A stretch of DNA of 64,000 nucleotides from Candidatus Omnitrophota bacterium (GCA_021735655.1 JAIPGM010000008.1:5922-69921), one strand, 5' to 3'; positions 2,524 through 62,680 are shown, numbered from the stretch's first letter. Notes: generated from the sequence alone by a model not told the origin. Numbers and translations are program-made.

Positions 2524-2889
2524 ATGCAAGTTAATTTCAAAACCGAAGAGATTAGTTTTATTGTTGATTTCAATAATTCTCGCACTGCTCAGGAGATTAT
2601 CCAAAAGCTGCCGATAGAATCTGTTGTTTCAACCTGGGGAGATGAAATTTATTTCGATATTGGTTTTAAAGCTTCAGCTGAAGATGCGACTATGGAGCTT
2701 AAGGTTGGGGATGTGGCTTATTGGCCACAAGGTAAATGCCTTTGTGTATTTTTTGGACCGACCCCGGCTAGCAGCGGTTTGGCTCCGGTTCCGGCTTCTC
2801 CGGTTGTCTTGGTTGGTAAGACCAAGGTTTTACCTTTAGAGCTAAAGTCTATACAGTTAGGTGAAAGAATAACTGTAACCCGGGGATAA
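2524..2889 (+). CDS. Small conserved hypothetical protein, possibly cyclophilin-like fold
   Basis: 121 aa, RBS gggaggtg upstream; weak resemblance only. Confidence 0.3.
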   Translation: MQVNFKTEEISFIVDFNNSRTAQEIIQKLPIESVVSTWGDEIYFDIGFKASAEDATMELKVGDVAYWPQGKCLCVFFGPTPASSGLAPVPASPVVLVGKTKVLPLELKSIQLGERITVTRG

Positions 2890-3009
2890 AAGTACTTGTT
2901 TCTTATATAATTACATATTACAATAGGGAAGTGGATTCAGTCTAATGAAAGCATTTTACAAAATCATAGTTTTATTAAAAAATCTAAGTTTCATCAAGGA
3001 GGATGAGCA

Positions 3010-4449
3010 ATGTTTGACGACAGAAGTAGAAAGTATAAGAATCAGTATGTGCCTTTAGATCCAGTCGATATTAATCTTTACAAGCCATTTATTGGTGAAA
3101 AAGCTTTAGATGAGATTAAGTATTTAGCTCAACCGTTACAAAATAAAGTTTGGGCCAATATTAACTCTACTTTTGTTGGTGGCGGCGTAGCTGAAATGCT
3201 TCAAAGCGTGCTTCCTTTTGCCCGGGGCTTAGGTATTGATGCTCGTTGGTTTGTTATTGAGGGGAGCGATGAGTTTTTTACGGTAACTAAGAAGTTTCAC
3301 AATCTCTTACAAGGTATTGATCAGCCAATTAGTCTTGAGGAGATTTTTCACGCTTATCTTGATACGATTGATGAAAATACCCGTAATGTTAGGGTTGTCG
3401 GACATATGGTTACCGTGCATGATCCTCAGCCGGCAGCCTTAGTTATGAACGGTAATGTTTATGGGCATATCTTATGGCGTTGTCATATAGATACCTCTAA
3501 CGCCAGCCGTCGAATTTGGCGCTTTTTACTTCCTTATCTTAATCAGTTCGAGGGAGCAATCTTTACGGCTATGGAGTTTGTTCGTGAAAATCTTCATATT
3601 CCTACTTATGAGATTAGTCCTTCCATTGATCCTTTGCGCATTAAGAATAAACAACGTACCGAAAAGGAAGCTTTGAAGGTTCTAGCTGATCTTTTTAATA
3701 AGCATAATATTGATCCTAAGCGTCCGATTGTTGCTGCTGTTTCACGTTACGATATTCATAAGAACCAAAAAGGGATTATCGAGTCCTTTAGGTTAATGAA
3801 GCAGAAAATAGCTAAAGGAATTAATCCGATTTTAATCATTATGGGTAATAGTGCAACCGATGATCCTGAGGGTAGCCAAGTTTATGAAGATATAAAAGAA
3901 GCGGTTGGAAGCGATAAGGATATTTATCTTCTTTTGAATGTTGAGAATAATGATGAGGTTGTTGGTTCGCTTATGTCGATTGCTAATTGCTTTGTTCATA
4001 TTTCAACCAAGGAAGGTTTTGGTTTAGTGGTGACTGAAGCAATGTGGCAGGGCGTTCCGGTAATTGGTAGCAAAATAGGCGGAATTCCCAAACAGGTTGT
4101 AAACGGTGTAAACGGATTTCTAACCGGACCCCATGAATATGCTCAAGTAGCTCGGGCAATGCAGGTTTTTCTAGAAAATAAAAAAATGCGTGATGCCTTT
4201 GGTCAAAGCGCTCGCAACCATGTAGCTCAGAATTTTCTTCTTCCGCATATGCTTAAGAAAGAATTGACTTTAATGCGCTATCACTTAGAAATTGATAATA
4301 AAATCCCTCCTTTTAGGCTTAACAAATTAACTTACAAAGAGATAAGCCAGGCGCTCTACGGCCGAACGGTTTGGCCTTTTTCAACTAATGATTTAAAGCA
4401 GCGAATTGAAGCAATTTGGGAAGGCCTTGAACCGCGGGATATGGATTAA
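3010..4449 (+). CDS. GT-B glycosyltransferase family 4 with extended N-terminal domain (trehalose/sucrose synthase-like)
   Basis: C-terminal GT4 signature FVHISTKEGFGLVVTEAMWQGVPVIGSKIGGIP; RBS aggagga upstream. Confidence 0.65.
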   Translation: MFDDRSRKYKNQYVPLDPVDINLYKPFIGEKALDEIKYLAQPLQNKVWANINSTFVGGGVAEMLQSVLPFARGLGIDARWFVIEGSDEFFTVTKKFHNLLQGIDQPISLEEIFHAYLDTIDENTRNVRVVGHMVTVHDPQPAALVMNGNVYGHILWRCHIDTSNASRRIWRFLLPYLNQFEGAIFTAMEFVRENLHIPTYEISPSIDPLRIKNKQRTEKEALKVLADLFNKHNIDPKRPIVAAVSRYDIHKNQKGIIESFRLMKQKIAKGINPILIIMGNSATDDPEGSQVYEDIKEAVGSDKDIYLLLNVENNDEVVGSLMSIANCFVHISTKEGFGLVVTEAMWQGVPVIGSKIGGIPKQVVNGVNGFLTGPHEYAQVARAMQVFLENKKMRDAFGQSARNHVAQNFLLPHMLKKELTLMRYHLEIDNKIPPFRLNKLTYKEISQALYGRTVWPFSTNDLKQRIEAIWEGLEPRDMD

Positions 4450-4454
4450 AATCT

Positions 4455-4853
4455 ATGGGAAACGATATTAATGAAAAACGTAAATATCTACGGTTGGATA
4501 CGGTTAATATCGTTAAAGTTACTCTTGATCGTAAGCTAATCAAGAAACCTTCGGAATTTGTTTCAGCCTTTACTAAAAATATCAGCGTTGAAGGCGTGTG
4601 TTTTTTGTCCGATAAGTTTTTCGAAAAGGGTAAACGCTTGCGTATTGATATGAGCCTTCCTGGAGATCCAAAACCTTTGCGCTTGAGAGGCAAAGTTTGC
4701 TGGAGCCGCTTGGTCAAAGATAAAAATAAAACTAATAAAGTTTTTGAAGTAGGGGTTGAACTCTTTACTGTTGGCGAGAGCGATTCAACTAGGTTTATGG
4801 GTTATGTTTGTCGCCATATGACCAGTCGTCTTGGTCGATATCTACATCTTTAA
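4455..4853 (+). CDS. PilZ domain protein
   Basis: KRKYLRLD (RxxxR) and NISVEGVCF (D/NxSxxG) motifs. Confidence 0.55.
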   Translation: MGNDINEKRKYLRLDTVNIVKVTLDRKLIKKPSEFVSAFTKNISVEGVCFLSDKFFEKGKRLRIDMSLPGDPKPLRLRGKVCWSRLVKDKNKTNKVFEVGVELFTVGESDSTRFMGYVCRHMTSRLGRYLHL

Positions 4854-34619: not shown

Positions 34620-36188
34620 TTAGTTTTTATTCATCCCGCTTATTAAAGTGGGATATTTTTTTCGGAGAGGTCGCATAGCCCGGTCGAGTGCGCGTGTTTG
34701 GAGTACACGTAGGCCCTTTGGGTCTCCAGGGTTCGAATCCCTGCCTCTCCGCCATTTTTGAGAGCGGGCAATTTTGGCAACTATACTGAACGGCTCGGAC
34801 CAATAAAATGAAAGGTTTTTGTCTTTCAAAGTATGGTTCGAGCCGTTTGTTTTTAAAAAATCCCTTTTTTGCGACAGGTTTCCTTGCCAAGCGACAGAAC
34901 CGGCTAAATTGCAAGAGGTAATGAAGTTTTTAGAGAGTTCGAGCCAGCCGCCGCTTTGTTTCTCTATCTCGCCAAGCCTTTCCTGTAAATCTTTCTTTTC
35001 ATTGAGCAATTTAGCCTTCTTATGCTGATATTCTTCCTGCGATATATCACGCTCAACATATAAATCAATAAGCCTTTCTATTTTGCCGTCAATTGAGCTA
35101 AGTTTATCTTGTAATTGGCGAGATAGAGAAAAAGAGGCTTTGCGATTAATCTCGGCTAATTCATCAAGGCGGTTAAAAATAACATCTTTACCATTATCAG
35201 GGATAAACACCTGCATTAAGGCTTTATTAACTTGCTCAAGCAAAGCCTCTTCTCGAAGAAACTTTTGCGAACAACGCCTGATTTTCTTGGTACAACGATA
35301 ATAAATATGGCCTTTTTGCATTTCAGCGGTAATTGAGCCACCGCACTCACTGCATTTAATAAAGCCTCGAAAGGCAAATTTAACTTGGTTACGCTGTTGC
35401 GGCCGAGTTTTTCGGGATAATACCTCTTGGCACCTATCAAAAAGTTTCTTCGAGATGAGCGGCGGATGGCTGCCTTCATACATTTCGCCTTTAAACCTGA
35501 TAACCCCATAGTAAAAAGGATTTTGCAACAGCCTTGCAAGTTTACTCTTATGGACAGGCTTGCCCTTTCTGCCGATTAAACCCCAGGTTTTAACCTCCTG
35601 CATAAGCTCATAAAGTGAAAAGTTACCCGTGGCGTAAACTTCAAAAATTTTCTTAATATATGGAGAACGTTCAGCATCAGGAATAATAACTCTGGTTTTA
35701 CGGTCATTAACATAACCTAAAGGAGCATAAATAGGCCATACGCCACGGCGTAGCTTTTCACGCATACCACGCCTAATATTCTCGGAAAGATTATCTATAT
35801 AATACTTAGATTGTCCAAAAGCGATAGAGAGCATAAACTTACCTTGAGCAGTGTTATCAAAGCGGTAAGTAGGAAAACGTAAGTCTTTTATAACCCCTAA
35901 ATCAACCAAATAGATAATCTTACCACCATCAAGAGAGTTTCGGGCAAGCCTGTCCGGATGCCATGCCAAAATACCATCGGCATTACCACTTTCTAACTGC
36001 TGCAAAACAAACTCGAAGATAGGCCGTCCGGGACACTTGGCTGATTTGGCTTCCGAAAATTCATCAACCACAAAGAGGGATTCTTTCTTGGCATATTCGC
36101 GCAACTCGTTTATTTGGGACTCAATACTAAGGACCTGCCTATCTTCGGCATCAGTAGATTTCCTGGCATATAAAAGATATTTTGGCAT
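34620..36188 (-). CDS. Large serine recombinase (integrase); annotated 3' end reads antisense through tRNA-Ser
   Basis: N-terminal YARKSTDAEDRQ..SIESQ with catalytic Ser; recombinase domain; zinc beta-ribbon CSECGG...YYRC; coiled coil. Last ~45 codons are antisense of the tRNA (GRDSNPG = T-loop antisense), so the true C-terminus is uncertain. Confidence 0.8.
   Translation of the reverse strand: MPKYLLYARKSTDAEDRQVLSIESQINELREYAKKESLFVVDEFSEAKSAKCPGRPIFEFVLQQLESGNADGILAWHPDRLARNSLDGGKIIYLVDLGVIKDLRFPTYRFDNTAQGKFMLSIAFGQSKYYIDNLSENIRRGMREKLRRGVWPIYAPLGYVNDRKTRVIIPDAERSPYIKKIFEVYATGNFSLYELMQEVKTWGLIGRKGKPVHKSKLARLLQNPFYYGVIRFKGEMYEGSHPPLISKKLFDRCQEVLSRKTRPQQRNQVKFAFRGFIKCSECGGSITAEMQKGHIYYRCTKKIRRCSQKFLREEALLEQVNKALMQVFIPDNGKDVIFNRLDELAEINRKASFSLSRQLQDKLSSIDGKIERLIDLYVERDISQEEYQHKKAKLLNEKKDLQERLGEIEKQSGGWLELSKNFITSCNLAGSVAWQGNLSQKRDFLKTNGSNHTLKDKNLSFYWSEPFSIVAKIARSQKWRRGRDSNPGDPKGLRVLQTRALDRAMRPLRKKYPTLISGMNKN
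34664..34754 (+). tRNA. tRNA-Ser (anticodon GGA), type II with long variable arm, CCA encoded
   Basis: Acceptor GGAGAGG/CCTCTCC; anticodon stem CGTGT/ACACG with loop TTGGAGT; variable arm TAGGCCCTTTGGGTCTCC; T-arm CAGGG-TTCGAAT-CCCTG; ends GCCA. Confidence 0.85.
34749..34780. repeat. Left copy of a perfect 32-bp inverted repeat bracketing the recombinase gene (ccgccatttttgagagcgggcaattttggcaa)
   Basis: Exact reverse complement occurs at 36323..36354; the left copy overlaps the last 6 nt of tRNA-Ser. Confidence 0.85.
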
Positions 36189-36322
36189 GGCTTAAACCTC
36201 CCTCTAAGGTTCTGTCGCTTGGCAAAGATGATTTCAGAGATTCTAAGCAAATCTCAGAAATTAGATTAGCGACACCGCAGGTGGAGCAAAGGAAACCTGG
36301 AAGCAAAAAAGTTGATTTTTTG

Positions 36323-36354
36323 TTGCCAAAATTGCCCGCTCTCAAAAATGGCGG
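36323..36354. repeat. Right copy of the 32-bp inverted repeat
   Basis: ttgccaaaattgcccgctctcaaaaatggcgg is the reverse complement of 34749..34780. Confidence 0.85.
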
Positions 36355-36534
36355 TGTATAGGGGACGCAGTCCGAACCTTTTATGCAGCCGAAGGTGGTA
36401 TTTAATGCCTATGAATTCGGCTGCTGTCTCCCTTATCGGCCCACGTGGGCCGATAAGGCATCCCTGCGGCCTCTCCCTCGCAAAAATCTATATATTTTTA
36501 ATGCGGCGGCGGAAAATTTTTTTATTTTTTGTAA
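36353..36534. repeat. Copy 1 of a ~190-bp inverted-repeat element with internal hairpins (candidate MITE/att/ncRNA)
   Basis: About 90% identical to the reverse complement of 43038..43231. Contains hairpin cagccgaa...ttcggctg and the perfect palindrome ccttatcggcccacgtgggccgataagg. Confidence 0.75.
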
Positions 36535-36945
36535 ATAAGGAGTTTTTGCTCGGGTTCGGCCGCACCCCTTGCCACCTTTGTTAACATTGCGTATTTAATT
36601 ATATGATATGGTGTTGATTAAGGCAAGTCATTTCCATCTTGGCAGGGTTTTCCTTATTCTGGTAGCCAGTGGCAAGGGGGCAGCCTCATCGTGGTGAAAG
36701 CCTGGCGTGGTTGGCGGTCTGTTCCGCCCCGCCTATACGGCGTGGCTTGGTGGTTATTGGAAAGTCTTCCTCAAACGCCTGCCTTCCGGCAGGCTTAGGC
36801 TTTCAGCCTAAAAATAAGAAAAGCCTGCTCTTCAGGCAGGCGCTTTCGTCAGTCTTTTATTCCGCAGTAGCGGAATAAAAAATATACGACACAATCAATA
36901 AAAGATTTAAAAAAGTAAAATAAAAATAGGTAGGCTTAATTCGAA

Positions 36946-37158
36946 TTATGCTAATCCGTAATAATATATCTCTTGGCAAGGCTCTATCTCTTCCGTCTCT
37001 TCCTTTATTCTAGCATAAGGAAGGGAATTCTCATCTATTGGGGCATATTTACCTTCTTTAGTAAGGCAAAGAAACTCAATTAATTCCTTCTCTTTTTCAT
37101 CTTTTTTAGCATATCTTTCCTTATTTCTCATAATCTCACCGCCCGAATTATACCACAT
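36946..37158 (-). CDS. Small hypothetical protein (70 aa)
   Basis: ORF only; acidic/lysine-rich; low confidence it is real. Confidence 0.25.
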   Translation of the reverse strand: MWYNSGGEIMRNKERYAKKDEKEKELIEFLCLTKEGKYAPIDENSLPYARIKEETEEIEPCQEIYYYGLA

Positions 37159-37181
37159 CTTATAGACTTATTCAAGTAAAC

Positions 37182-38384
37182 TTACTCAAGTACCTTTTTG
37201 CCGATTTTTACCTCTAAATCATTCCTTATCCCACTCATATTTATTTCATAACCACAACTACATTTAAGTTTATTATCTTTCGGAAATGGGATACAACCTT
37301 TCTTCTTATAATCTTCATCAATCTTGGGATTGTGTGTGAACTTAGCATATATTTTATGCACTTTACCACATTTAGGACACTTAGTATTTATTTCAACAAC
37401 ATCAGGTAATTTAGGCAAACTAGGTATTTTTAGTGGGGCGCTCATTGCGACAGCTTGTTTAAGCAACTTATCATCTTGAGTAGCAAAAATTTTATATGTA
37501 GAACTCGTAGTAAACAACAATCTGCAAACCGTCTGAATTCTGCAGACAATATCTTTTAACACAGGATCATCATCTACTCTAGTTATCTTTAGCTTTATGC
37601 TTTCAAGATCGTCTATCTTTATTGATCTACCATGTGAACGCCATTTACCATGATTTATTAACTCATCTACTATTTCTTTTGCTCTCTGCGCCTTCATTTC
37701 TTCTGTTACTTGAATCTTGTTGGTTTCTGTTTCTTTCCAATTTCTGAATTTATATTTTTTAAGCCACTCAACCACTAAATCTTCAGCAAACTTAAGTGAG
37801 TGATAGACTCCTTTTAACTCACCAGGGCTTATTTGAGCTACCATAATGGCATCAAAAGGATTAAGTTTCCCTTTATTTTCGGCTTCCTTCTGTTTCTCAT
37901 TTACCCACTCAATATAATCAAAAGCCGACATAGCACTTCTGCCGATTTTCATTTGGGCATCTATTGGCCCTAAACTACCTGTTTTAGTCATAAGAATTTC
38001 ATCTCCGGACAAAACCATTATAGTACCAGCGCTCTTTGCTTCACCTGAAACAACAAAAGACACCCCGTCAAAATGAGACCGTAAGTAATTTACTATTTCC
38101 TCAGCAGCCTCACCACTCCCACCAGGTGTTTCTAAATAAATATCAATCTTAGACGAATTTTCCTTATTTCGTAATACATCAGCTATCATATAATAATCTT
38201 CTTGAGAAAGAGCTATATCAGGAATTGGTTTACCGATAGCGCTTGCAAATACTAATAAAAAGGAATCTCGCTTTTTATTATATTTAGATATTAAAGCCAT
38301 CAATTCTTTCTCTAATTCTTGCGCGCTTAACCTTTTGTTTATATATTCGGTCATTAAACTCATGAAATATCTCCTTAAAAACAA
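37182..38384 (-). CDS. ClpP/SppA-like (S49/SDH-type) serine protease fused to C-terminal tandem zinc ribbons
   Basis: ETPGGSGEAAEEI and SGEAKSAGTIMVLSGDEILM (ClpP/SppA serine region); C-terminal CPKCGKVH...CSCGYE. Confidence 0.55.
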   Translation of the reverse strand: MFLRRYFMSLMTEYINKRLSAQELEKELMALISKYNKKRDSFLLVFASAIGKPIPDIALSQEDYYMIADVLRNKENSSKIDIYLETPGGSGEAAEEIVNYLRSHFDGVSFVVSGEAKSAGTIMVLSGDEILMTKTGSLGPIDAQMKIGRSAMSAFDYIEWVNEKQKEAENKGKLNPFDAIMVAQISPGELKGVYHSLKFAEDLVVEWLKKYKFRNWKETETNKIQVTEEMKAQRAKEIVDELINHGKWRSHGRSIKIDDLESIKLKITRVDDDPVLKDIVCRIQTVCRLLFTTSSTYKIFATQDDKLLKQAVAMSAPLKIPSLPKLPDVVEINTKCPKCGKVHKIYAKFTHNPKIDEDYKKKGCIPFPKDNKLKCSCGYEINMSGIRNDLEVKIGKKVLE

Positions 38385-38654
38385 TTATGTTTTTATACCT
38401 TTCAAATTCCCATTGGAGACTTATTTTATCGCAACTTTACTTTTTTTCAACATAAGATTTATACTAAAAATGAGCCCCCACTCTTACAGGTGGGGAACTC
38501 CCACAAGCTTAGATATATATCTTTGTTATAAAAAAGTCTCTACTCATCAGACAGGCGTCTTCGTCAACCTTATATTCCGCAGCAGCGGAATATTCCTATA
38601 TATACCCCGCCCATTAATGACGGTATTAATTATGCTTTGCATTCATATTTGTAA

Positions 38655-39440
38655 TTATTCAAATTCAAGTCTCACAGAAGCTTTATCACATTTTTTATCA
38701 CATTTATAACAATTACAATTAGAAGTGTACCACTCAATATTTTTTCGTTCTCCAGGTTTTAATGGCTCACTTCCGATAGCGTATGTATAATCAGTATTAA
38801 CTACTTTACCATATTCATTTTTATAGGTAATATGAAATTTAACATTTGTTACTGGTATTTGCGAACCATTATAAATTGTAGCCTTGCCTTCTACGCTATT
38901 TGAGTAACTTGAACCAAACGACCAATCTTCAATTATAACTTTCTGTTTCGCTTCTTCAAGTAACTCATGTTTTTCCATATCAGACTTTGAATCATCAGAT
39001 ATATTGTTAAGTTTGGCGTCCGCTACAAACCCATAACTGTCAGAAATCTGCCACTCTGAAAATTTTTTTCTGACGATAAAAATAGGCTTCCGTTCGAGCT
39101 TCATTCCAAAGGCGTTAATTGTCGAGCCATAAACTTGAATCCAATATTTATCCTTTTCTTTTTTTAATGTTTTTAATTTCCATTTCTCAATTTTAAAATA
39201 AGAATATTTTCCCACTAAAAATAGATTTATAGAATAACTCGTATCAAAATATTTTGAAATTTGTTCTAAATCTTGTTCATTTAAATATTTTAAAGCAAGA
39301 TTGACAGTCTTTTCTCCATTATTACTAAAGAGACTATCAATTCCTATTTTTATTGTTTCCCTATTAAAATACCCTAATAATATAACAGCTAGTAAGAGAA
39401 TAAAAATAACGATATGTTTAGCGCTTACATTAATTGTCAT
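38655..39440 (-). CDS. Membrane-anchored hypothetical protein with Cys-rich C-terminus
   Basis: N-terminal TM IVIFILLLAVILLGY; C-terminal NCNCYKCDKKCDK. Confidence 0.35.
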   Translation of the reverse strand: MTINVSAKHIVIFILLLAVILLGYFNRETIKIGIDSLFSNNGEKTVNLALKYLNEQDLEQISKYFDTSYSINLFLVGKYSYFKIEKWKLKTLKKEKDKYWIQVYGSTINAFGMKLERKPIFIVRKKFSEWQISDSYGFVADAKLNNISDDSKSDMEKHELLEEAKQKVIIEDWSFGSSYSNSVEGKATIYNGSQIPVTNVKFHITYKNEYGKVVNTDYTYAIGSEPLKPGERKNIEWYTSNCNCYKCDKKCDKASVRLEFE

Positions 39441-39502
39441 TAAATCACTCCTACATTTCTACATTTAATTATAATCTATTTAACTTTCTAATAACTAACT
39501 TT

Positions 39503-39706
39503 CTATTTTTTATAATTCCAGTCCGTCATTTTATCACTTATGTATTGCTTTAGCTTTTGGTCAAAAATAATCATCATTTTAGCTTTTGAGTTTTCAGCTA
39601 AATCGGCGATTTCTTGAAAAATATTATCAATATCTGAGTTTACTTCTTCAATAATATTCTTGATCTTTTCGCTGTTGTAGCCTAGATTCATAAGGAATGA
39701 GTGCAA
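39503..39706 (-). CDS. Small hypothetical protein (67 aa)
   Basis: ORF only. Confidence 0.25.
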   Translation of the reverse strand: MHSFLMNLGYNSEKIKNIIEEVNSDIDNIFQEIADLAENSKAKMMIIFDQKLKQYISDKMTDWNYKK

Positions 39707-39850
39707 TAAATTCTCTGTTTCGCTTTTGACAAAATCAGGCCTTTCATCTAACCAGCCTTATTCAAATATATTAAACCATCTTTCCGAAATATCCATTTGC
39801 TCTCTCATATTATCATCTTTTCATGCTAACATTTTATATTGCCTTACAGG

Positions 39851-40048
39851 TTATTCCAAACAGTTTTTTAGTTTGTTTACGCCTACCTGCGCTTTACAGA
39901 AAGGACATATTATGCAATTTTTGTCGCTATTGAACAGCTTCTTTAAATTCTCTCGGGCAATCATTTCTTCACAATAAGGGCATTTAAGAAATTCGGAATC
40001 CATGAAACCAAAAAACCCGCCAATGAATTTAGGGTCAATAAAACTCAT
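39851..40048 (-). CDS. Small zinc-ribbon protein
   Basis: CPYCEE...CIICPFCK; 4-bp overlap (ATGA) with the upstream gene suggests translational coupling. Confidence 0.4.
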   Translation of the reverse strand: MSFIDPKFIGGFFGFMDSEFLKCPYCEEMIARENLKKLFNSDKNCIICPFCKAQVGVNKLKNCLE

Positions 40049-40608
40049 TGAGTATGGATGCTCTTTTTATTCTTTATCCAGTCAGATGGAATTTTCCCAT
40101 AGAGCCTATATATTTCAAGAATTAATCCTTGAACTGTTTCTAAAACACAATATACCGCCCGTGATTCGGGCCATCCCATAATAGGTTTAGTGTCATCTGA
40201 TACGTTCAAATGAACAAGGGCATTTCGTATATTTCTAGCTTCTTTGAAGTCGTTCATTAGATTTCTACTTATATTTTTACCATTACAAATTTTTGGAATC
40301 CACCTTTGCAATTTTTTTCCCAATGAAACAAATCTTTCTTTTCTTTCTCCTGTAAGGAATTCCTGCTTTTGTTTTGGCAAAACTTCATTATTTGATACGT
40401 ATTCTTGAGCAAATTCATTTATAATAGCTTCCAATGCTGTAAAAGCAAAAAGAATAGAAGCAGCCGAAAATCTTCTATATTTTAACCTGCCATCTTCTGG
40501 TTTAATTTCTTCCGTTCCAAGTGCAGGCATCCCTTGAAATTCTTCATTCATTCTTTCTGCAAAATATTTAGCGTCATTTAAAAATAATTCGTGCCAATAG
40601 TTCCACAT
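40045..40608 (-). CDS. Hypothetical protein with HEPN-like Rx4H motif (candidate toxin/abortive-infection effector)
   Basis: ARNIRNALVHLN fits the Rx4-6H HEPN signature; predicted alpha-helical; coupled to the downstream zinc-ribbon gene. Confidence 0.35.
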   Translation of the reverse strand: MWNYWHELFLNDAKYFAERMNEEFQGMPALGTEEIKPEDGRLKYRRFSAASILFAFTALEAIINEFAQEYVSNNEVLPKQKQEFLTGERKERFVSLGKKLQRWIPKICNGKNISRNLMNDFKEARNIRNALVHLNVSDDTKPIMGWPESRAVYCVLETVQGLILEIYRLYGKIPSDWIKNKKSIHTQ

Positions 40609-40781
40609 TATTTTAGTCGATACGGGTCATTACAAATTTAGTAAAAATAACGCTAAAGCGTAGTATTAAACCTAGAATCCACCCAGAAATTCCATTTCAT
40701 TTAAAAACCATATTATTTGTTAAGTTTTATTACGCAATTTTGATAATTAGCTAACCATCTATTCAATCAGTTTACGCCAAA

Positions 40782-41882
40782 TCACAAATAAGTGCTAATT
40801 AACTTTGACAATTCACCCCTATCTATTAACTTTATATTATTAGAACTCGCCAACTTTATAGCCGAACGAGTAAACTCATTCGTTGTAATTACCATACCTT
40901 TATCTGCTTTGTAATGCTTAATTGCCGCAACAACTTCCTGCACTCCTCTATTAGTTACTTTATTATTATATCGTTTTGCCTGCACTACGATTTTTTCTCC
41001 GAATTTTTCAACAACTAAATCTGCCCCTTGATCGCCAGACAACTTTGTATTTTCTACCTTATATCCCATTTTTTTAAAAAGTATATTTAGAAAATTTTCA
41101 AATTCATATCCTGTAGCTGAATCTAAATCGTATATCGTTAAAGGTTGATGCTGGCTATTGTTCAGTTGTTTTTCAAAATGTTCAAGCTTTAGCTTTTGCC
41201 TTAATTCATCTATTCGCTGCCTCAACACTTCTTTATCAACAGGATAATGTTTCTCCTGTAATAGACGTTGAAAAGAATCCATATAAAGCAAGTAGTTTTC
41301 ACCACATAACTCCAGAAAACGCTTTAAAAAAGATTCTATTCCATCAGGATTATTATGCATCATCTTAGCTTTGAAATTCATATAATTCTGTTTATCTAAT
41401 TCACTATCTATTAAACCCCTTAATTCTTCAATATCAAAATTAAAACCTTTTTCAGCCATCAAATCTCTCAAGGTATTAAGTTCTTCACCGGGTATATTAA
41501 GGCTGCAAGAAGTATAGTTGTGTTTTGCTGAAAAGTTTTTTATATATTTGTAACTTTCACTGGAAAGCAACCTTTCTCCCTCTTTCTTAAATTCTTGTAA
41601 TGCAAATTGTCTATTTATACGCCATACAATCCATGACACCAATGAAACAAATAATAGTAGAAAGAAAGGTATTGGAAATGTTCCGACCAGAGCTATAACT
41701 AAAATTCCAACCAAAATTGCAATTGCTGTTACCTTTCCTATATTATCATCCAAAACATTCAAAACGTCCTTCCAGTTTGAACCTGGCAAATCACACAACT
41801 TGATTCGTACAAAGATAGCACTGGCAATAATTCCGGAAAAAATTCCTATATATGCTAAAATATTTTGAGAAATTGAATCCAT
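40782..41882 (-). CDS. Membrane-anchored Mrr-cat (PD-(D/E)xK) restriction-endonuclease-like protein
   Basis: 3 N-terminal TM helices; C-terminal Mrr_cat GYEFENFLNILFKKMGY...GDQGADLVVEKFGEKIVVQAKRY. Confidence 0.65.
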   Translation of the reverse strand: MDSISQNILAYIGIFSGIIASAIFVRIKLCDLPGSNWKDVLNVLDDNIGKVTAIAILVGILVIALVGTFPIPFFLLLFVSLVSWIVWRINRQFALQEFKKEGERLLSSESYKYIKNFSAKHNYTSCSLNIPGEELNTLRDLMAEKGFNFDIEELRGLIDSELDKQNYMNFKAKMMHNNPDGIESFLKRFLELCGENYLLYMDSFQRLLQEKHYPVDKEVLRQRIDELRQKLKLEHFEKQLNNSQHQPLTIYDLDSATGYEFENFLNILFKKMGYKVENTKLSGDQGADLVVEKFGEKIVVQAKRYNNKVTNRGVQEVVAAIKHYKADKGMVITTNEFTRSAIKLASSNNIKLIDRGELSKLISTYL

Positions 41883-41990
41883 ATTTTTATCCTAAATAAT
41901 ATTCAAAATCACCTGCATTCTATCAATTTAAGCGAATTTTTGCAAGATTTCTAGTTTATCGAGCAGCTTAAACCAATCCGCCTAAAAATA

Positions 41991-42030
41991 CAAAAAACCT
42001 TCGCCATTTCTAACGAAGGTTTTCTTTCTT
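41991..42030. terminator. Bidirectional intrinsic terminator
   Basis: ccttcgcc-atttctaa-cgaagg hairpin with T-tracts on both strands; sits between two minus-strand genes. Confidence 0.6.
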
Positions 42031-42166
42031 TTAGCGTCCTGGATTTAGTCCTTCCAACACGGGACTTTTGCCTGATTGTCATTTTCAATATAGCTCTGGT
42101 TTCTGATTGTGTCAAGGGAAAAAGTCGTTGCTATTCGCTACCCGCCTATCTTATTATCCATTTTAT

Positions 42167-42652
42167 CTAATTATTATTCGATATTTCAGATTGTGGGAAA
42201 GTTACTGGAATAGAAAATTTCACTCTATGGATTGATCCTGTATTTTGCTCTGAAGAACCAGTAGCTTTGCCACCAGCTTTGACTGTGTAAATTTTGGCAG
42301 TTGCATTGATTTCTGCAGAAGAATTCTGATTTTCATTAATCGTTAAAGCTACATCAAATTCTATTGCTTCCATATAGCGAAGCTTATAATCTTGTTGCTT
42401 CCTCTCTTTTAAGGTATTTCCGACAAAGCCATAAACAGGATTTATCTCTCCGCCCGTTTCTTTAGTTTTTTCTTGTGCGTTTTTGATCCCGTGAAATATT
42501 TGCGATAAGGTTTCGGAAATAAAATCTTGTAATTTCATGTTTACTCCTTTTCGTTTTTGTTTTTTGTTTCGAATGGCAATAATAAAACTTCCTAAAAAAA
42601 TAATGAAAGCACCGATTGAAATACTTATAATGATGTTACTTTTTTCCACCAT
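42167..42652 (-). CDS. Membrane-anchored hypothetical protein
   Basis: N-terminal TM IIISISIGAFIIFLGSFIIAI; no known motif. Confidence 0.3.
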   Translation of the reverse strand: MVEKSNIIISISIGAFIIFLGSFIIAIRNKKQKRKGVNMKLQDFISETLSQIFHGIKNAQEKTKETGGEINPVYGFVGNTLKERKQQDYKLRYMEAIEFDVALTINENQNSSAEINATAKIYTVKAGGKATGSSEQNTGSIHRVKFSIPVTFPQSEISNNN

Positions 42653-42699
42653 ATTTTTTATTTATAAATTTATTTTTTCAACTAGCATTAATGAATTCA

Positions 42700-42906
42700 T
42701 TAATAAACCAATTCGTTCACCTTAACGTTAAGAACCTTAGCAATTTTCAAAAGAGTTTTAATTGTGGGGTTATCATTTTTTCCCACTTCTATTTTCGCAA
42801 GGGTAGTATGAGTGACATCAGCAAGCTTAGATAACTTATCTTGAGATAGCCCCTGTATTTTTCGTAACTTCTTTATTCTTTTCCCAATTTTTGCTGCACT
42901 TGACAT
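42700..42906 (-). CDS. XRE-family helix-turn-helix transcriptional regulator
   Basis: LRKIQGLSQDKLSKLADVTHTTLAKIEVGKN matches the HTH_3/Cro-C1 pattern. Confidence 0.7.
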   Translation of the reverse strand: MSSAAKIGKRIKKLRKIQGLSQDKLSKLADVTHTTLAKIEVGKNDNPTIKTLLKIAKVLNVKVNELVY

Positions 42907-43037
42907 TTGGTATTATATTGTTACAATTATATTCTATGGATAATACTACCTAAAACTTACTTATATTTTAGCAATTTTGACATCTTTTGCAAGATTTTTG
43001 CATGATAATGCTTTATATAGACAACACCGCGGAAAAA

Positions 43038-43231
43038 TTGAAAATTCGTTTACAAAAAATAAAAAAATTTTCCGCCGCCGCATTAAAAATATATAGATTT
43101 TTGCGAGGGAGAGGCCGCAGGGATGCCTTATCGGCCCACGTGGGCCGATAAGGAAGACAGCAGCCGAATTCATAGGCGTTAGCGAGCACCTTCGGCTGTG
43201 TAAAAGGTTCGGACTGCGTCCCCTATACACC
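43038..43231. repeat. Copy 2 (inverted) of the ~190-bp repeat element
   Basis: Reverse complement of 36353..36534. Differences in the loop of the first hairpin are clustered (ggtatttaat vs gctcgctaac) while the stems are conserved. Confidence 0.75.
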
Positions 43232-43290
43232 GTTTTTACATCTACCACCTACCTATTCCAAAACTAACTCAATAGTGATATAATCTAACT

Positions 43291-60615: not shown

Positions 60616-61018
60616 TCCCCGGTAGCTCAGTTGGTAGAGCGCATGGCTGTCAATGAGGCCGCAACTTTTAGAGCCGAAGGCGAATAAAAGCTGCATGGCC
60701 GAATTGGTTCCGCCGAGTTATGGTGAATTTCTTTCATAAATTCACCATATATTTAGCGAGGCGGAACTAAGTATGGCAGCTCTCATGAGAAATCATGAGA
60801 TGATAAGCGGGCTAATTCAGGGAACCCTAAGTCTCGTAAGAGATATGGCAATCCTGAGCTAAATGTGCAAGATGAAAATCTTGCGCTAAATGTGCAGAGA
60901 CTATATACCCGCCTCCTAAAGCCAAAAGCCATGGAGATGAGATAGTCCAGTCCTTAAGGAAACTTAAGGGGTAACTGTAACCATGATGTCCGAGGTTCGA
61001 GCCCTCGCCGGGGAGCCA
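60616..61018 (+). tRNA. tRNA-Asn (anticodon GUU) interrupted by a 327-nt group I intron in the anticodon loop
   Basis: Exon 1 60616..60650 (TCCCCGGTAGCTCAGTTGGTAGAGCGCATGGCTGT); exon 2 60978..61018 (TAACCATGATGTCCGAGGTTCGAGCCCTCGCCGGGGAGCCA). Joined sequence closely matches E. coli tRNA-Asn as recalled. Intron has P/Q/R/S-like blocks (aattcagggaaccctaag; aatcctgagctaaatg; cagagactata; gagatagtccag) and terminal G. Confidence 0.75.
60651..60977 (+). ncRNA. Group I intron (self-splicing ribozyme candidate) within tRNA-Asn
   Basis: Conserved R (cAGAGACUAuA) and S (GAUAGUCCag) elements able to form P7; 5' splice site after U; 3' terminal G; P9-like hairpin ccttaagg-aaac-ttaagg; no ORF inside. 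Confidence 0.7.
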
Positions 61019-62680
61019 GTTAGACGTCTGACAGCGGATTTCTTCGCTGTCGGATTCGCATAGATCAAATAGCCCTGTGTCGGGTTGACGCCCATACAGG
61101 GCTATTTGTATTTTGGTGGGGCTTAAAACGGCTTTGTGCAGGACGAGCCTTACCATATCCTTCTGCCGATAAGGTTTTATCTTATCGAAAAGGTCGGAGA
61201 ATCGGCTCAAAGCCAATGTTACAAGCTCCTGACTTATCGATTCCCGCTCGATTTCCTTGATCATGGCCTCAAGCGAGGCTATGCCGGTTTCTATCTCTTT
61301 CCGGCGCTGGCCAAGCTCTGCAAGTTTCTCTTTCAGGAATATACTGCTGTCATCCGTGGCCATGGCAGTCCATTTATTCATTATTCCATCGGCAAAGGCC
61401 TTGACCTCGGCCAGTTCTTTTTGAAGGTGCGTTCTCCGGTATTTAAGCTGTGGTAGTTCCTTCATGAGCTTTTCATTGGTATGTTCTATCAGTTTTTGCA
61501 TAAGGCCGGAATCGGATGAGAGATATTTTATTCTCTCGATTATGATACGCTCTATCTCATCGGCCGGGAGTTTAAATCTGCAGGCTTTATCTTTGCATAC
61601 ATAGAAAAAGTATTTATTGCCACGTCTGCCTGTTCCGCAGGTTCCTTCCATCTGACCACCGCATTTACCGCACCACAAAAGCCCGCCATTAAGGATATAA
61701 GCGTGTTTTATTGTCTTTGTGCCGTTGTGTTTCGTTTTGGTGTTTTGTTTGATGAGCTTCTGGACCTTGTAGAAGGTCTCCTCATCGATTAAAGGCTCCC
61801 AGACCGCCTTGACGGTCCTGTAACGCTCTTTTTCCTGTAGCTTAGACTGATCCTGCAACCTTTTCTTTTTATTGATCTCTTTAAGCCCGATATAAGCGCA
61901 ATTGACGAGTAGTTGTTTTATAGATGATCTGCCGAATTTCTCGGGAGTGCGGAATTTGCCTCTGCGAGAGGTGTACCCTTTGGTGCGATAGCCATTATCA
62001 TTAAGGGCCCGGGCAGTTCCCATAAGCGATCCGCACTCAAGGTATTTCTTAAAGGCAAACCGCACGAGGGCCTTTTCTTTTTCGTTTACTATTGGATAAC
62101 CTTTGCGTTTTGGATCGAGGTCATATCCCAGCAAATGCCCGCCGTTCCAGAGTCCACGCTCGGCCCGGGCAAGACACGCTTCTTTATTGCGCTCGGAGGT
62201 TTGTGTCCGCTCGAATTCTGCGAGAGCCATCATTATTGTTATGAATAACTTGCCTTGAGAGGACGTGGTATCGTAGTTCTGTTTTAAGCATACGAATTCG
62301 ACATCGTATTTGGTGAGGATCTCGAAGAAGTTCAAGAAATCCCTGACTGAGCGACTTATCCGATCAAGTGCGGTACATATAACGGTATTTACCTTGCCTG
62401 ACTTGATATCTTCAAGAAGCTGGGTGAATTCGATGCTCCGGAAGGAATCTTTGCCAGATACGCCTTTCAGGATATACCGGCCGGTTTCGACCCATCGTTC
62501 CCCGCAGGCAGTGGTCTTATATTCGATATGGGCCTGCAGGCGCTGTAGCTGATTGGTAAGCGAGCCCTCGGGATTTCGGGCCTGCTTGTCGGTGCTTACC
62601 CTTATCACAAATCCGCAATTCTTTATTATCTTATCTTCCATAACAACACAACCCCTATAACAATACTTGGCACAAGTCAA
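60827..62680 (-). CDS. Large serine recombinase (integrase); 3' end reads antisense through tRNA-Asn exon 2 and intron
   Basis: N-terminal FVIRVSTDKQ with catalytic Ser; zinc ribbon CGKCGG...YVCKDKAC; coiled coil. Last ~90 codons overlap the att-like IR and tRNA, so the true C-terminus is probably shorter. Confidence 0.8.
   Translation of the reverse strand: MTCAKYCYRGCVVMEDKIIKNCGFVIRVSTDKQARNPEGSLTNQLQRLQAHIEYKTTACGERWVETGRYILKGVSGKDSFRSIEFTQLLEDIKSGKVNTVICTALDRISRSVRDFLNFFEILTKYDVEFVCLKQNYDTTSSQGKLFITIMMALAEFERTQTSERNKEACLARAERGLWNGGHLLGYDLDPKRKGYPIVNEKEKALVRFAFKKYLECGSLMGTARALNDNGYRTKGYTSRRGKFRTPEKFGRSSIKQLLVNCAYIGLKEINKKKRLQDQSKLQEKERYRTVKAVWEPLIDEETFYKVQKLIKQNTKTKHNGTKTIKHAYILNGGLLWCGKCGGQMEGTCGTGRRGNKYFFYVCKDKACRFKLPADEIERIIIERIKYLSSDSGLMQKLIEHTNEKLMKELPQLKYRRTHLQKELAEVKAFADGIMNKWTAMATDDSSIFLKEKLAELGQRRKEIETGIASLEAMIKEIERESISQELVTLALSRFSDLFDKIKPYRQKDMVRLVLHKAVLSPTKIQIALYGRQPDTGLFDLCESDSEEIRCQTSNWLPGEGSNLGHHGYSYPLSFLKDWTISSPWLLALGGGYIVSAHLAQDFHLAHLAQDCHISYET
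61061..61101. repeat. 12-bp perfect inverted repeat with 17-bp spacer (candidate recombinase att core)
   Basis: aaatagccctgt-N17-acagggctattt, 43 bp downstream of the tRNA-Asn 3' end. Confidence 0.5.

Follow-up and report, generated by a model that had tools for sequence, protein, structure and literature searches.

A serine-recombinase element at a tRNA-Ser(GGA) gene in an Omnitrophota genome, its probable mosaic cargo, and a widespread protease/small-protein gene pair

Is a run of small conflict-type genes on one strand of a mobile element a single system, or a collection of separate ones that happen to travel together? We address this question for a stretch of 64,000 nucleotides (nt) from the metagenome-assembled genome of a Candidatus Omnitrophota bacterium (GCA_021735655.1, JAIPGM010000008.1:5922-69921; this whole stretch is hereafter called the window), in which positions 36946 to 42906 hold nine open reading frames (ORFs). 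An earlier note on this DNA, made from the sequence alone, had described these ORFs as defense-like cargo and had suggested that a protease together with a HEPN/zinc-ribbon pair, or the interval 37182-41882 as a whole, might act as one unit; all nine ORFs were recovered on the minus strand with unchanged boundaries. With a probability of roughly two in three, we favor the reading that they are cargo of an element of ~8.5 kb, inserted by a large serine recombinase at the extreme 3' end of a tRNA-Ser(GGA) gene, and that this cargo is not one system but a mosaic of four or more cassettes, each transcribed separately. The genes and the sites between them are as follows, in the direction of transcription.

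42700-42906, minus: XRE-family helix-turn-helix (HTH) regulator of 68 amino acids (aa), HTH_3 match at 5.7e-16; first gene of the minus-strand set
42167-42652, minus: protein of 161 aa whose N terminus carries a membrane anchor; lies 47 nt behind the XRE gene
41992-42025, minus: terminator-like hairpin (15 pairs and a T run) that parts the XRE/161-aa genes from the Mrr gene
40782-41882, minus: membrane-anchored protein with a C-terminal Mrr_cat PD-(D/E)xK nuclease domain (profile searches)
40045-40608, minus: predicted HEPN-fold protein of 187 aa with E60/N64 and R128-x4-H133 (alignment, model)
39851-40048, minus: 65-aa zinc-ribbon protein (CxxC ... CxxCxxC) whose start overlaps the HEPN stop (ATGA)
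39503-39706, minus: 67-aa ORF of unknown function (62 aa as called in the Logan record)
38655-39440, minus: 261-aa protein, membrane-anchored at the N terminus and ending in a CxCxxCxxxC cluster; no homologue found
38423-38598, minus: second copy of a two-hairpin terminator (38540-38598); the protease gene is preceded by a promoter-like site (38450-38423)
37182-38363, minus: serine protease of SDH type and ClpP fold, 393 aa, ending in a four-Cys zinc ribbon (profiles, alignment)
36946-37131, minus: small acidic protein, 61 aa from M10 (ORF open to 37158), the conserved protease partner
36819-36877, minus: two-hairpin terminator element, the copy downstream of the protease cassette (consensus match)
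36536-36945, no strand assigned: G+C-rich noncoding stretch, kept only in close Omnitrophota relatives

We read this set as four cassettes, which would be independent conflict modules (anti-phage or addiction): (i) the XRE regulator with the 161-aa membrane protein; (ii) the membrane-anchored Mrr-type nuclease; (iii) the translationally coupled HEPN and 65-aa zinc-ribbon proteins, followed in the same terminator-bounded unit by the two proteins of 67 and 261 aa, which may or may not belong with the pair; and (iv) the SDH/ClpP-fold protease with its zinc ribbon, followed by the ~60-aa acidic protein. Their independence is argued on two grounds. First, terminator-like sites (42025-41992 and 38598-38540) and a promoter-like site (38450-38423) lie between the units, so that the protease cassette has a promoter-like site and terminators of its own. 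The terminator element flanking it is ~60 nt long (TATTCCGC-nnnn-GCGGAATA, then GCCTGC...GCAGGC and a T run), is present in two copies of like orientation, one to either side of the cassette, and recurs after the cassette of a related genome (L002, 11544-11643; numbers prefixed with L are our handles for the contigs compared). Second, the remaining seven island proteins are missing from every one of the ~100 protease loci sampled, and DNA similarity to related genomes is confined to the cassette, spanning the protease start codon to the small-ORF stop. A hammerhead ribozyme was considered for the same hairpins (CTGATGAG ... CGAAA, near 36830 and 38550) and rejected, the feature being a terminator-type hairpin loop with no Rfam ribozyme match even at E<5.

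These observations bear directly on the alternative that the protease, the HEPN/zinc-ribbon pair, the Mrr nuclease, and the membrane proteins make up one multigene abortive-infection or toxin-antitoxin system under XRE control. The genes do lie on one strand with short gaps, a single XRE gene heads the set, and no gene matches a named system; however, the other island genes are missing from the protease loci, even a protease with 86% identity (L012) has different neighbors, terminator- and promoter-like sites separate the units, and the HEPN protein is nearly an orphan, and we hold a single system to be very unlikely. PADLOC yields only domain-level or single-gene candidates (PDC-S02, mREase_IV, and HTH control proteins), in agreement with the earlier note's statement that no named system is present, and the conflict-type domains it had listed (Mrr_cat, HEPN, XRE, and a ClpP-fold protease) are all there. 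It had placed the XRE gene at the end of the set; the gene in fact stands at the 5' end, not the 3' end, and the terminator hairpins are at 36823-36877.

What accompanies the protease is the small ORF immediately downstream of it. Among the protease loci, 89 have room for such an ORF, and in 87 of these a homologue of 36946-37131 follows the protease, beginning 13 to 87 nt past its stop codon (median, 23 nt); of the remaining two, L018 carries a diverged copy. The central proposal of the earlier note is thereby wrong, because the partner of the protease is this ORF and not the HEPN pair. The small-protein family comprises 69 unique sequences of 56 to 64 aa with the consensus ...LxFLxxTKeGKYAxIDesSLpYsR..E..E....EeyYY.. 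(tail motif YYY), and in the window its start is most likely M10. Clustering of neighboring ORFs revealed no third conserved gene beside the cassette. The protease and the small protein are a self-contained, widely transferred unit that travels alone.

The element that carries the set is delimited by the following features.

34620-36188, minus: large serine recombinase (Resolvase, Recombinase, and Zn_ribbon_recom)
34664-34754, plus: tRNA-Ser(GGA) (ARAGORN; Rfam tRNA, 47 bits), its 3' end (CCG) being the putative host side of the left attachment site (attL)
34749-34781, plus: 33-nt segment "a" at the recombinase 3' end (repeat search), with a perfect inverted copy at 36322-36354
36322-36535, minus: internal copy of "a" (36322-36354) running into the left arm, X_L (36352-36535), of a 184-nt inverted repeat (repeat search, sequence)
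43049-43232, plus: right arm, X_R, of that repeat (repeat search, GC skew), with the outer end ...CCTATACACCG/TTTTTACATC as the putative right attachment site (attR)

The description of the set as cargo of a recombinase-borne element was upheld, the recombinase and tRNA-Ser(GGA) flanking the genes. All three domains that define large serine recombinases were found by profile search, and the PHROGs match is to an integrase family (phrog_95, 4.8e-82); an exact look-up of the 522-aa protein returned no record. The final ~45 codons of its ORF are antisense to the tRNA gene, which was unlisted when Rfam was run at gathering thresholds over the whole window and scored 47 bits against a family threshold of 29 in a permissive run (a filter effect). 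The 33-nt inverted pair (34749-34781 and 36322-36354) brackets the recombinase gene. Since a recombinase homologue in L083 aligns to residues 415 to 481, straight across segment "a," the gene natively ends with this segment, and the native C terminus reaches at least through 34749-34781. Further, GC skew is negative within the window solely over ~35 to 43 kb and is positive again at 43 to 44 kb.

Three junctions share a terminal ...CCG, namely, tRNA/a (34752), the internal and inverted X/a, and X/host (43232). Written in a single orientation, with the break shown as a slash, they read ...CTCTCCG/CCATTTTTGAGAGC... at the tRNA, repeat ...CCTATACACCG/CCATTTTTGAGAGC... internally, and repeat ...CCTATACACCG/TTTTTACATC... 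at the right, directly after which comes the host pilin promoter. The simplest reading would be integration by a crossover inside the CCG with which the tRNA gene ends, which would place attL at ~34752 and attR at ~43232; the circle junction would then be expected as ...CCTATACACCGCCATTTTTGAGAGC joined to the recombinase 3' end and the empty site as ...CCTGCCTCTCCGTTTTTACATCTACC. A second large serine recombinase lies in the window (ORF 60827-62680, minus), its 3' part lying antisense across a tRNA whose sequence is interrupted by a group I intron (60725-60969; Rfam, 79 bits) and whose 3' half ends near 61009; ARAGORN did not call this intron-containing tRNA near 60725-61009. This recombinase, too, adjoins a tRNA 3' end, in keeping with such a choice of target.

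The arms of the 184-nt inverted repeat (36352-36535 and 43049-43232) enclose the cargo and are 96% identical, with the inner 105 nt identical. Each contains a perfect 28-nt palindrome (CCTTATCGGCCCACGTGGGCCGATAAGG, at 36431-36458 and 43126-43153), and the repeat folds better than shuffled versions on either strand (z of about -2.9). An independent Logan assembly of SRR12088349 gives a contig (L001) of 6,573 bp that corresponds to 36506-43078 and ends 30 nt inside each arm, as expected of a real two-copy repeat. Read on the minus strand, 36322-36535 resembles an intact attP-type junction (...CCTATACACCG/CCATTTTTGAGAGC). This arrangement could instead mean that the 6.5-kb cargo is invertible by site-specific or homologous recombination, or that the inner copy is an assembly artifact of mixed integrated and excised forms. 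The near-identity of the arms, their palindromes, the exact position of the Logan breaks, and the adjoining recombinase gene all speak for these readings. Yet inversion would leave every internal operon unchanged, and the junction at 36321/36322 (TTGATTTTTT/GTTGCCAAAA) is unique sequence, which would not be expected from mis-traversal of an assembly graph; we regard both versions as distinctly unlikely. The repeat may be a recombination site, the 3' region of the recombinase gene, or an RNA.

Relatives of the repeat are sparse. One directly follows the protease cassette in a single other lineage (L009, L010, L042, and L043), where the palindrome stem differs in sequence with its complementarity kept, and L002 has a degenerate copy behind its cassette. 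The idea that the repeat generally accompanies the cassette was rejected, given its absence at ~90 other loci, and so was its identity with a known RNA (no Rfam match, no ARAGORN call, and no likeness to the transfer-messenger RNA [tmRNA] 3' ends of related genomes). In L042, an IS21-type insertion (2634-4657, with IstA/IstB-like ORFs) parts the cassette from the repeat-like sequence; L043 is otherwise identical.

Two observations concern the noncoding stretch between the repeat and the small ORF. A match to RAGATH-32 (RF02922) at 36742-36817 on the plus strand, opposite to the genes and between the small ORF and the inverted repeat, lies below threshold (32.6 bits against a gathering score of 41.8; E, 1.9e-4), and literature searches on RAGATH-32 found nothing relevant. 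Within 36536-36760, GCTGCCCCCTTGCCAC can pair over a long range with GGTGGCAAGGGGTGCGGC; the pairing is kept with changed bases in the Omnitrophota contig L012 (2245-2477) and so may point to a structured RNA (n = 2 sequences).

We next consider the protease cassette (36946-38363). The protease matches PF01972 (SDH_protease) with 51.9 bits against a cutoff of 31.3, the core covering residues 50 to 164; ClpP and NfeD matches are weaker, and the NCBIfam equivalog NF047768 scores 64.8 against its threshold of 250. A profile search of the PDB with the protease found ClpP and the NfeD protease PH1510. In an alignment of 33 members, S111 (in GEAKSAG), D135, H238, and H244 are invariant, as are four cysteines of the tail, C329/C332 (CPKC) and C368/C370 (CxC). 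The claim of a ClpP-fold protease fused to zinc ribbons therefore stands as to fold and fusion and fails as to the number of ribbons, which is one rather than two because the tail has only these four invariant Cys. The 393-aa form with an ATG start is on record in public assemblies; an exact look-up of a 400-aa form with a TTG start gave no record. The family counts 4,164 homologues. Full-length identities of 65 to 70% link Omnitrophota, anammox bacteria, Ignavibacteriales, and Deltaproteobacteria; further copies occur in Spirochaetaceae and Bacilli genomes, and a protease on a Leptospira interrogans plasmid shows 54% identity.

Where the cassette resides was surveyed in ~30 contexts chosen for long flanks. 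They include (i) restriction and bacteriophage exclusion (BREX) settings, in which it lies 2 nt behind an MmeI/Eco57I-type methylase accompanied by a PLD-SNF2 protein (L006), immediately behind BrxC and a PglX-like methylase (L055-L057; L056, 478-7364), beside a Type ISP enzyme (L077/78), beside a Type III-like methylase and ResIII with a UvrD-nuclease (L084), or beside another methylase (L049); (ii) mobility genes, namely, tyrosine integrases (L066 and L018), serine recombinases (L027, L014, and L083), and TraH (L023-26); and (iii) ParE-like and RelB genes (L002 and L103). Several copies lie 150 to 620 nt from a tRNA gene. In L009, the cassette stands alone in the order mutL, tRNA-Pro, cassette, tRNA-Arg, with no mobility gene nearby. 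Two settings may be described more fully. In the related Omnitrophota genome L002 (7601-12361), it shares with a ParE-like pair an island of ~4 kb that has tRNA-Ser(GCT) on one side and the tmRNA gene on the other. On the 77-kb Leptospira interrogans plasmid NZ_CP097317 (L103, 67788-69238), peptidase WP_060684609 and the 61-aa protein WP_060684610 adjoin a RelB antitoxin gene and an Rpn nuclease gene.

In viruses, an alignment-based scan found the protease with the small ORF on 14 contigs; a scan of viral contigs with the single protease sequence gave no match. On the viral contigs tested, the cassette lies beside an integrase, beside an ImmA-like metalloprotease, or upstream of terminase, and more distant phage homologues of the protease, which lack the zinc ribbon, occupy accessory positions. 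These contexts weigh on the possibility that the enzyme serves in phage head maturation, as a prohead protease, and that the island is what is left of a decayed prophage. It has in its favor weak and partial profile matches limited to the ClpP core (phrog_1684, 1.9e-9; NF045542, 39 bits against 120). The best PHROG, though, is phrog_11747 (3.5e-53), a family of unknown function; the island has no capsid, portal, or terminase gene; and in phages and prophages the gene either has integrases, regulators, or lysis genes as neighbors or precedes terminase, and does not stand between portal and capsid. The earlier note had named clustering with prohead proteases next to capsid genes as an outcome that would speak against its own reading; the homologues lie beside integrases and regulators and never beside capsid genes, and the prohead interpretation is scarcely credible.

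Our tentative proposal, to which we assign somewhat less than an even chance, is that the protease and the ~60-aa gene constitute an undescribed and very widespread two-gene conflict system (anti-phage, or a restriction/BREX accessory) that moves as a unit between phyla, plasmids, and prophages, the small protein being a cognate inhibitor, substrate, or trigger. We go no higher because all functional statements rest on domains and neighborhoods. The literature searched holds no published function for this protease subfamily or for SDH proteases in defense. Alternatively, the cassette might serve the mobile elements that carry it: the protease would cleave the small protein as a repressor-like regulator of induction or transfer, in the way that ImmA cleaves ImmR, or the pair would be a plain addiction module. 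Cassettes beside integrases, TraH, and, in a prophage, an ImmA-like metalloprotease are consistent with this, as are the basic N-terminal part of the small protein and its conserved helix-like LxFLxxTKxGKY segment. However, neither the solitary cassette of L009 among housekeeping genes and tRNAs nor the tight placement behind restriction-modification or BREX methylases (2-nt gap in L006) needs an element-specific regulator, and we consider a role confined to the element rather unlikely.

The remaining cassettes hold the other conflict-type proteins. In the Mrr protein, Mrr_cat (PF04471) is matched over its whole length (residues 253 to 362; 2.9e-35, 121 bits, profile positions 1 to 115 of 115) behind hydrophobic segments at about residues 6 to 32 and 46 to 90, which bears out its description as a membrane-anchored nuclease; the motif GDQGADL ... 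QAK can be read in the sequence, and PADLOC matches are to PDC-S02 (2e-17), the ZorD C terminus (1.2e-25), and mREase_IV. The 261-aa and 161-aa proteins likewise proved, as described before, to be membrane-anchored proteins outside known families: each has one N-terminal hydrophobic segment, and neither has a match in Pfam, PHROGs, NCBIfam, PADLOC, the PDB, or viral contigs. The CxCxxCxxxC of the former (residues 242 to 251) is a possible small metal-binding knuckle.

The coupling of the 187-aa and 65-aa genes through an ATGA overlap was confirmed. Profile searches, which had been named as a check on the HEPN and Mrr calls, sustained Mrr at full length and left the HEPN families below their Pfam cutoffs, with RiboL-PSP at 18.9 bits against 28.4; 2 of 13 relatives match RiboL-PSP (best, 6.7e-6). 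The 187-aa protein is nearly an orphan: a word-index homologue search found only the protein itself, and HMMER against 1.8 billion representatives gave 12 weak matches (E of 7e-7 to 1e-3). Aligning 29 relatives shows N64, R128, and H133 to be invariant, with E60 almost so, and the Rx4-6H motif is present. An AlphaFold model from the single sequence was useless (predicted local distance difference test [pLDDT], 42), and one built from the alignment (pLDDT, 84.5; predicted template modeling score, 0.83) has the helical-bundle fold of HEPN proteins. A PDB profile search with the family gave no match. Some relatives carry PF27216 (YopA_C) as the C-terminal domain of longer proteins. The zinc-ribbon partner is absent in the one relative whose context was fetched, so the pairing is known from this locus alone.

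Taken together, the Mrr nuclease would cut DNA; the HEPN protein may be an RNase toxin restrained by, or acting with, its zinc-ribbon partner; and the protease, through Ser111 with Asp135 and His, might act on or be controlled by the small protein, its zinc ribbon serving as a sensing or nucleic acid-binding part. Gene content, domain and fold assignments, the co-occurrence within the protease cassette, the transcription signals, and the junction sequences are what the analysis shows directly; every biochemical activity, any defense role, and the placing of the attachment sites are predictions from sequence.

Several points weigh against our overall interpretation. The attachment sites were assigned from three junction sequences that share CCG, with no empty site or circle junction for comparison, and the intact attP-like copy (36322-36535), inverted within the element, is left unexplained by the model. 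Promoter and terminator calls are consensus matches, and terminator-like sites are no more frequent than in shuffled sequence. The defense role is drawn from domain content and neighborhood, every Pfam HEPN family scores below its cutoff, and the neighbor survey was made without a statistical control. Lastly, PADLOC has no model for the protease cassette, which could therefore serve another purpose.

The island itself is ordinary, being defense- and addiction-type cargo on an integrative element. Its value is as a pointer to the protease cassette; few gene pairs in this analysis are as conserved and as widely transferred. Should the cassette be a defense or addiction system, it would add a class of ClpP-fold proteases to the known effectors in a compact two-gene unit that is easily tested, and Leptospira interrogans, a cultured pathogen that has it, is a possible experimental entry point. 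The element, for its part, would be a clear case of tRNA 3'-terminal bases serving as the target of a serine recombinase in Omnitrophota.

Comparison with known systems places each component near, and at some distance from, a described family. The Mrr protein has the Mrr_cat domain in common with Mrr-type (Type IV) nucleases, PDC-S02, and the nuclease domain of ZorD. Unlike Mrr-type nucleases, it has about three membrane-spanning segments and a linker of ~150 residues in place of the N-terminal DNA-binding domain, and in contrast to Zorya, in which an SNF2 helicase is fused to the nuclease and ZorA, ZorB, and ZorC genes lie nearby, this locus has neither a helicase nor ZorABC, only the ZorD C-terminal nuclease being matched, with no hit to any other Zor model. 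Among HEPN toxins (HEPN-MNT, the AbiA C-terminal HEPN, and RiboL-PSP), the 187-aa protein is set apart by its partner, a 65-aa zinc ribbon with no nucleotidyltransferase match in profile searches rather than an MNT nucleotidyltransferase, and for this reason it is not a HEPN-MNT member. The protease shares with the SDH family (PF01972 and NF047768) the core match and the invariant Ser, Asp, and His, and it differs in a helical middle part of ~130 residues, the C-terminal four-Cys zinc ribbon, and the pairing with a ~60-aa protein. Type 1 BREX loci end with a protease gene, the Lon-like BrxL, and in L055-L057 the cassette occupies a BrxL-like position; the analogy is positional only, the fold being ClpP/SDH rather than Lon, with no ATPase domain, and the cassette occurring mostly without BREX genes. 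Finally, like other large-serine-recombinase elements (the phage-integrase type, SCCmec Ccr, and XisF), the element encodes a three-domain recombinase at one end and has no long direct terminal repeats, whereas its putative target is the last bases of a tRNA gene, its recombinase ORF runs antisense through that tRNA, and a second, inverted attP-like copy lies inside it.

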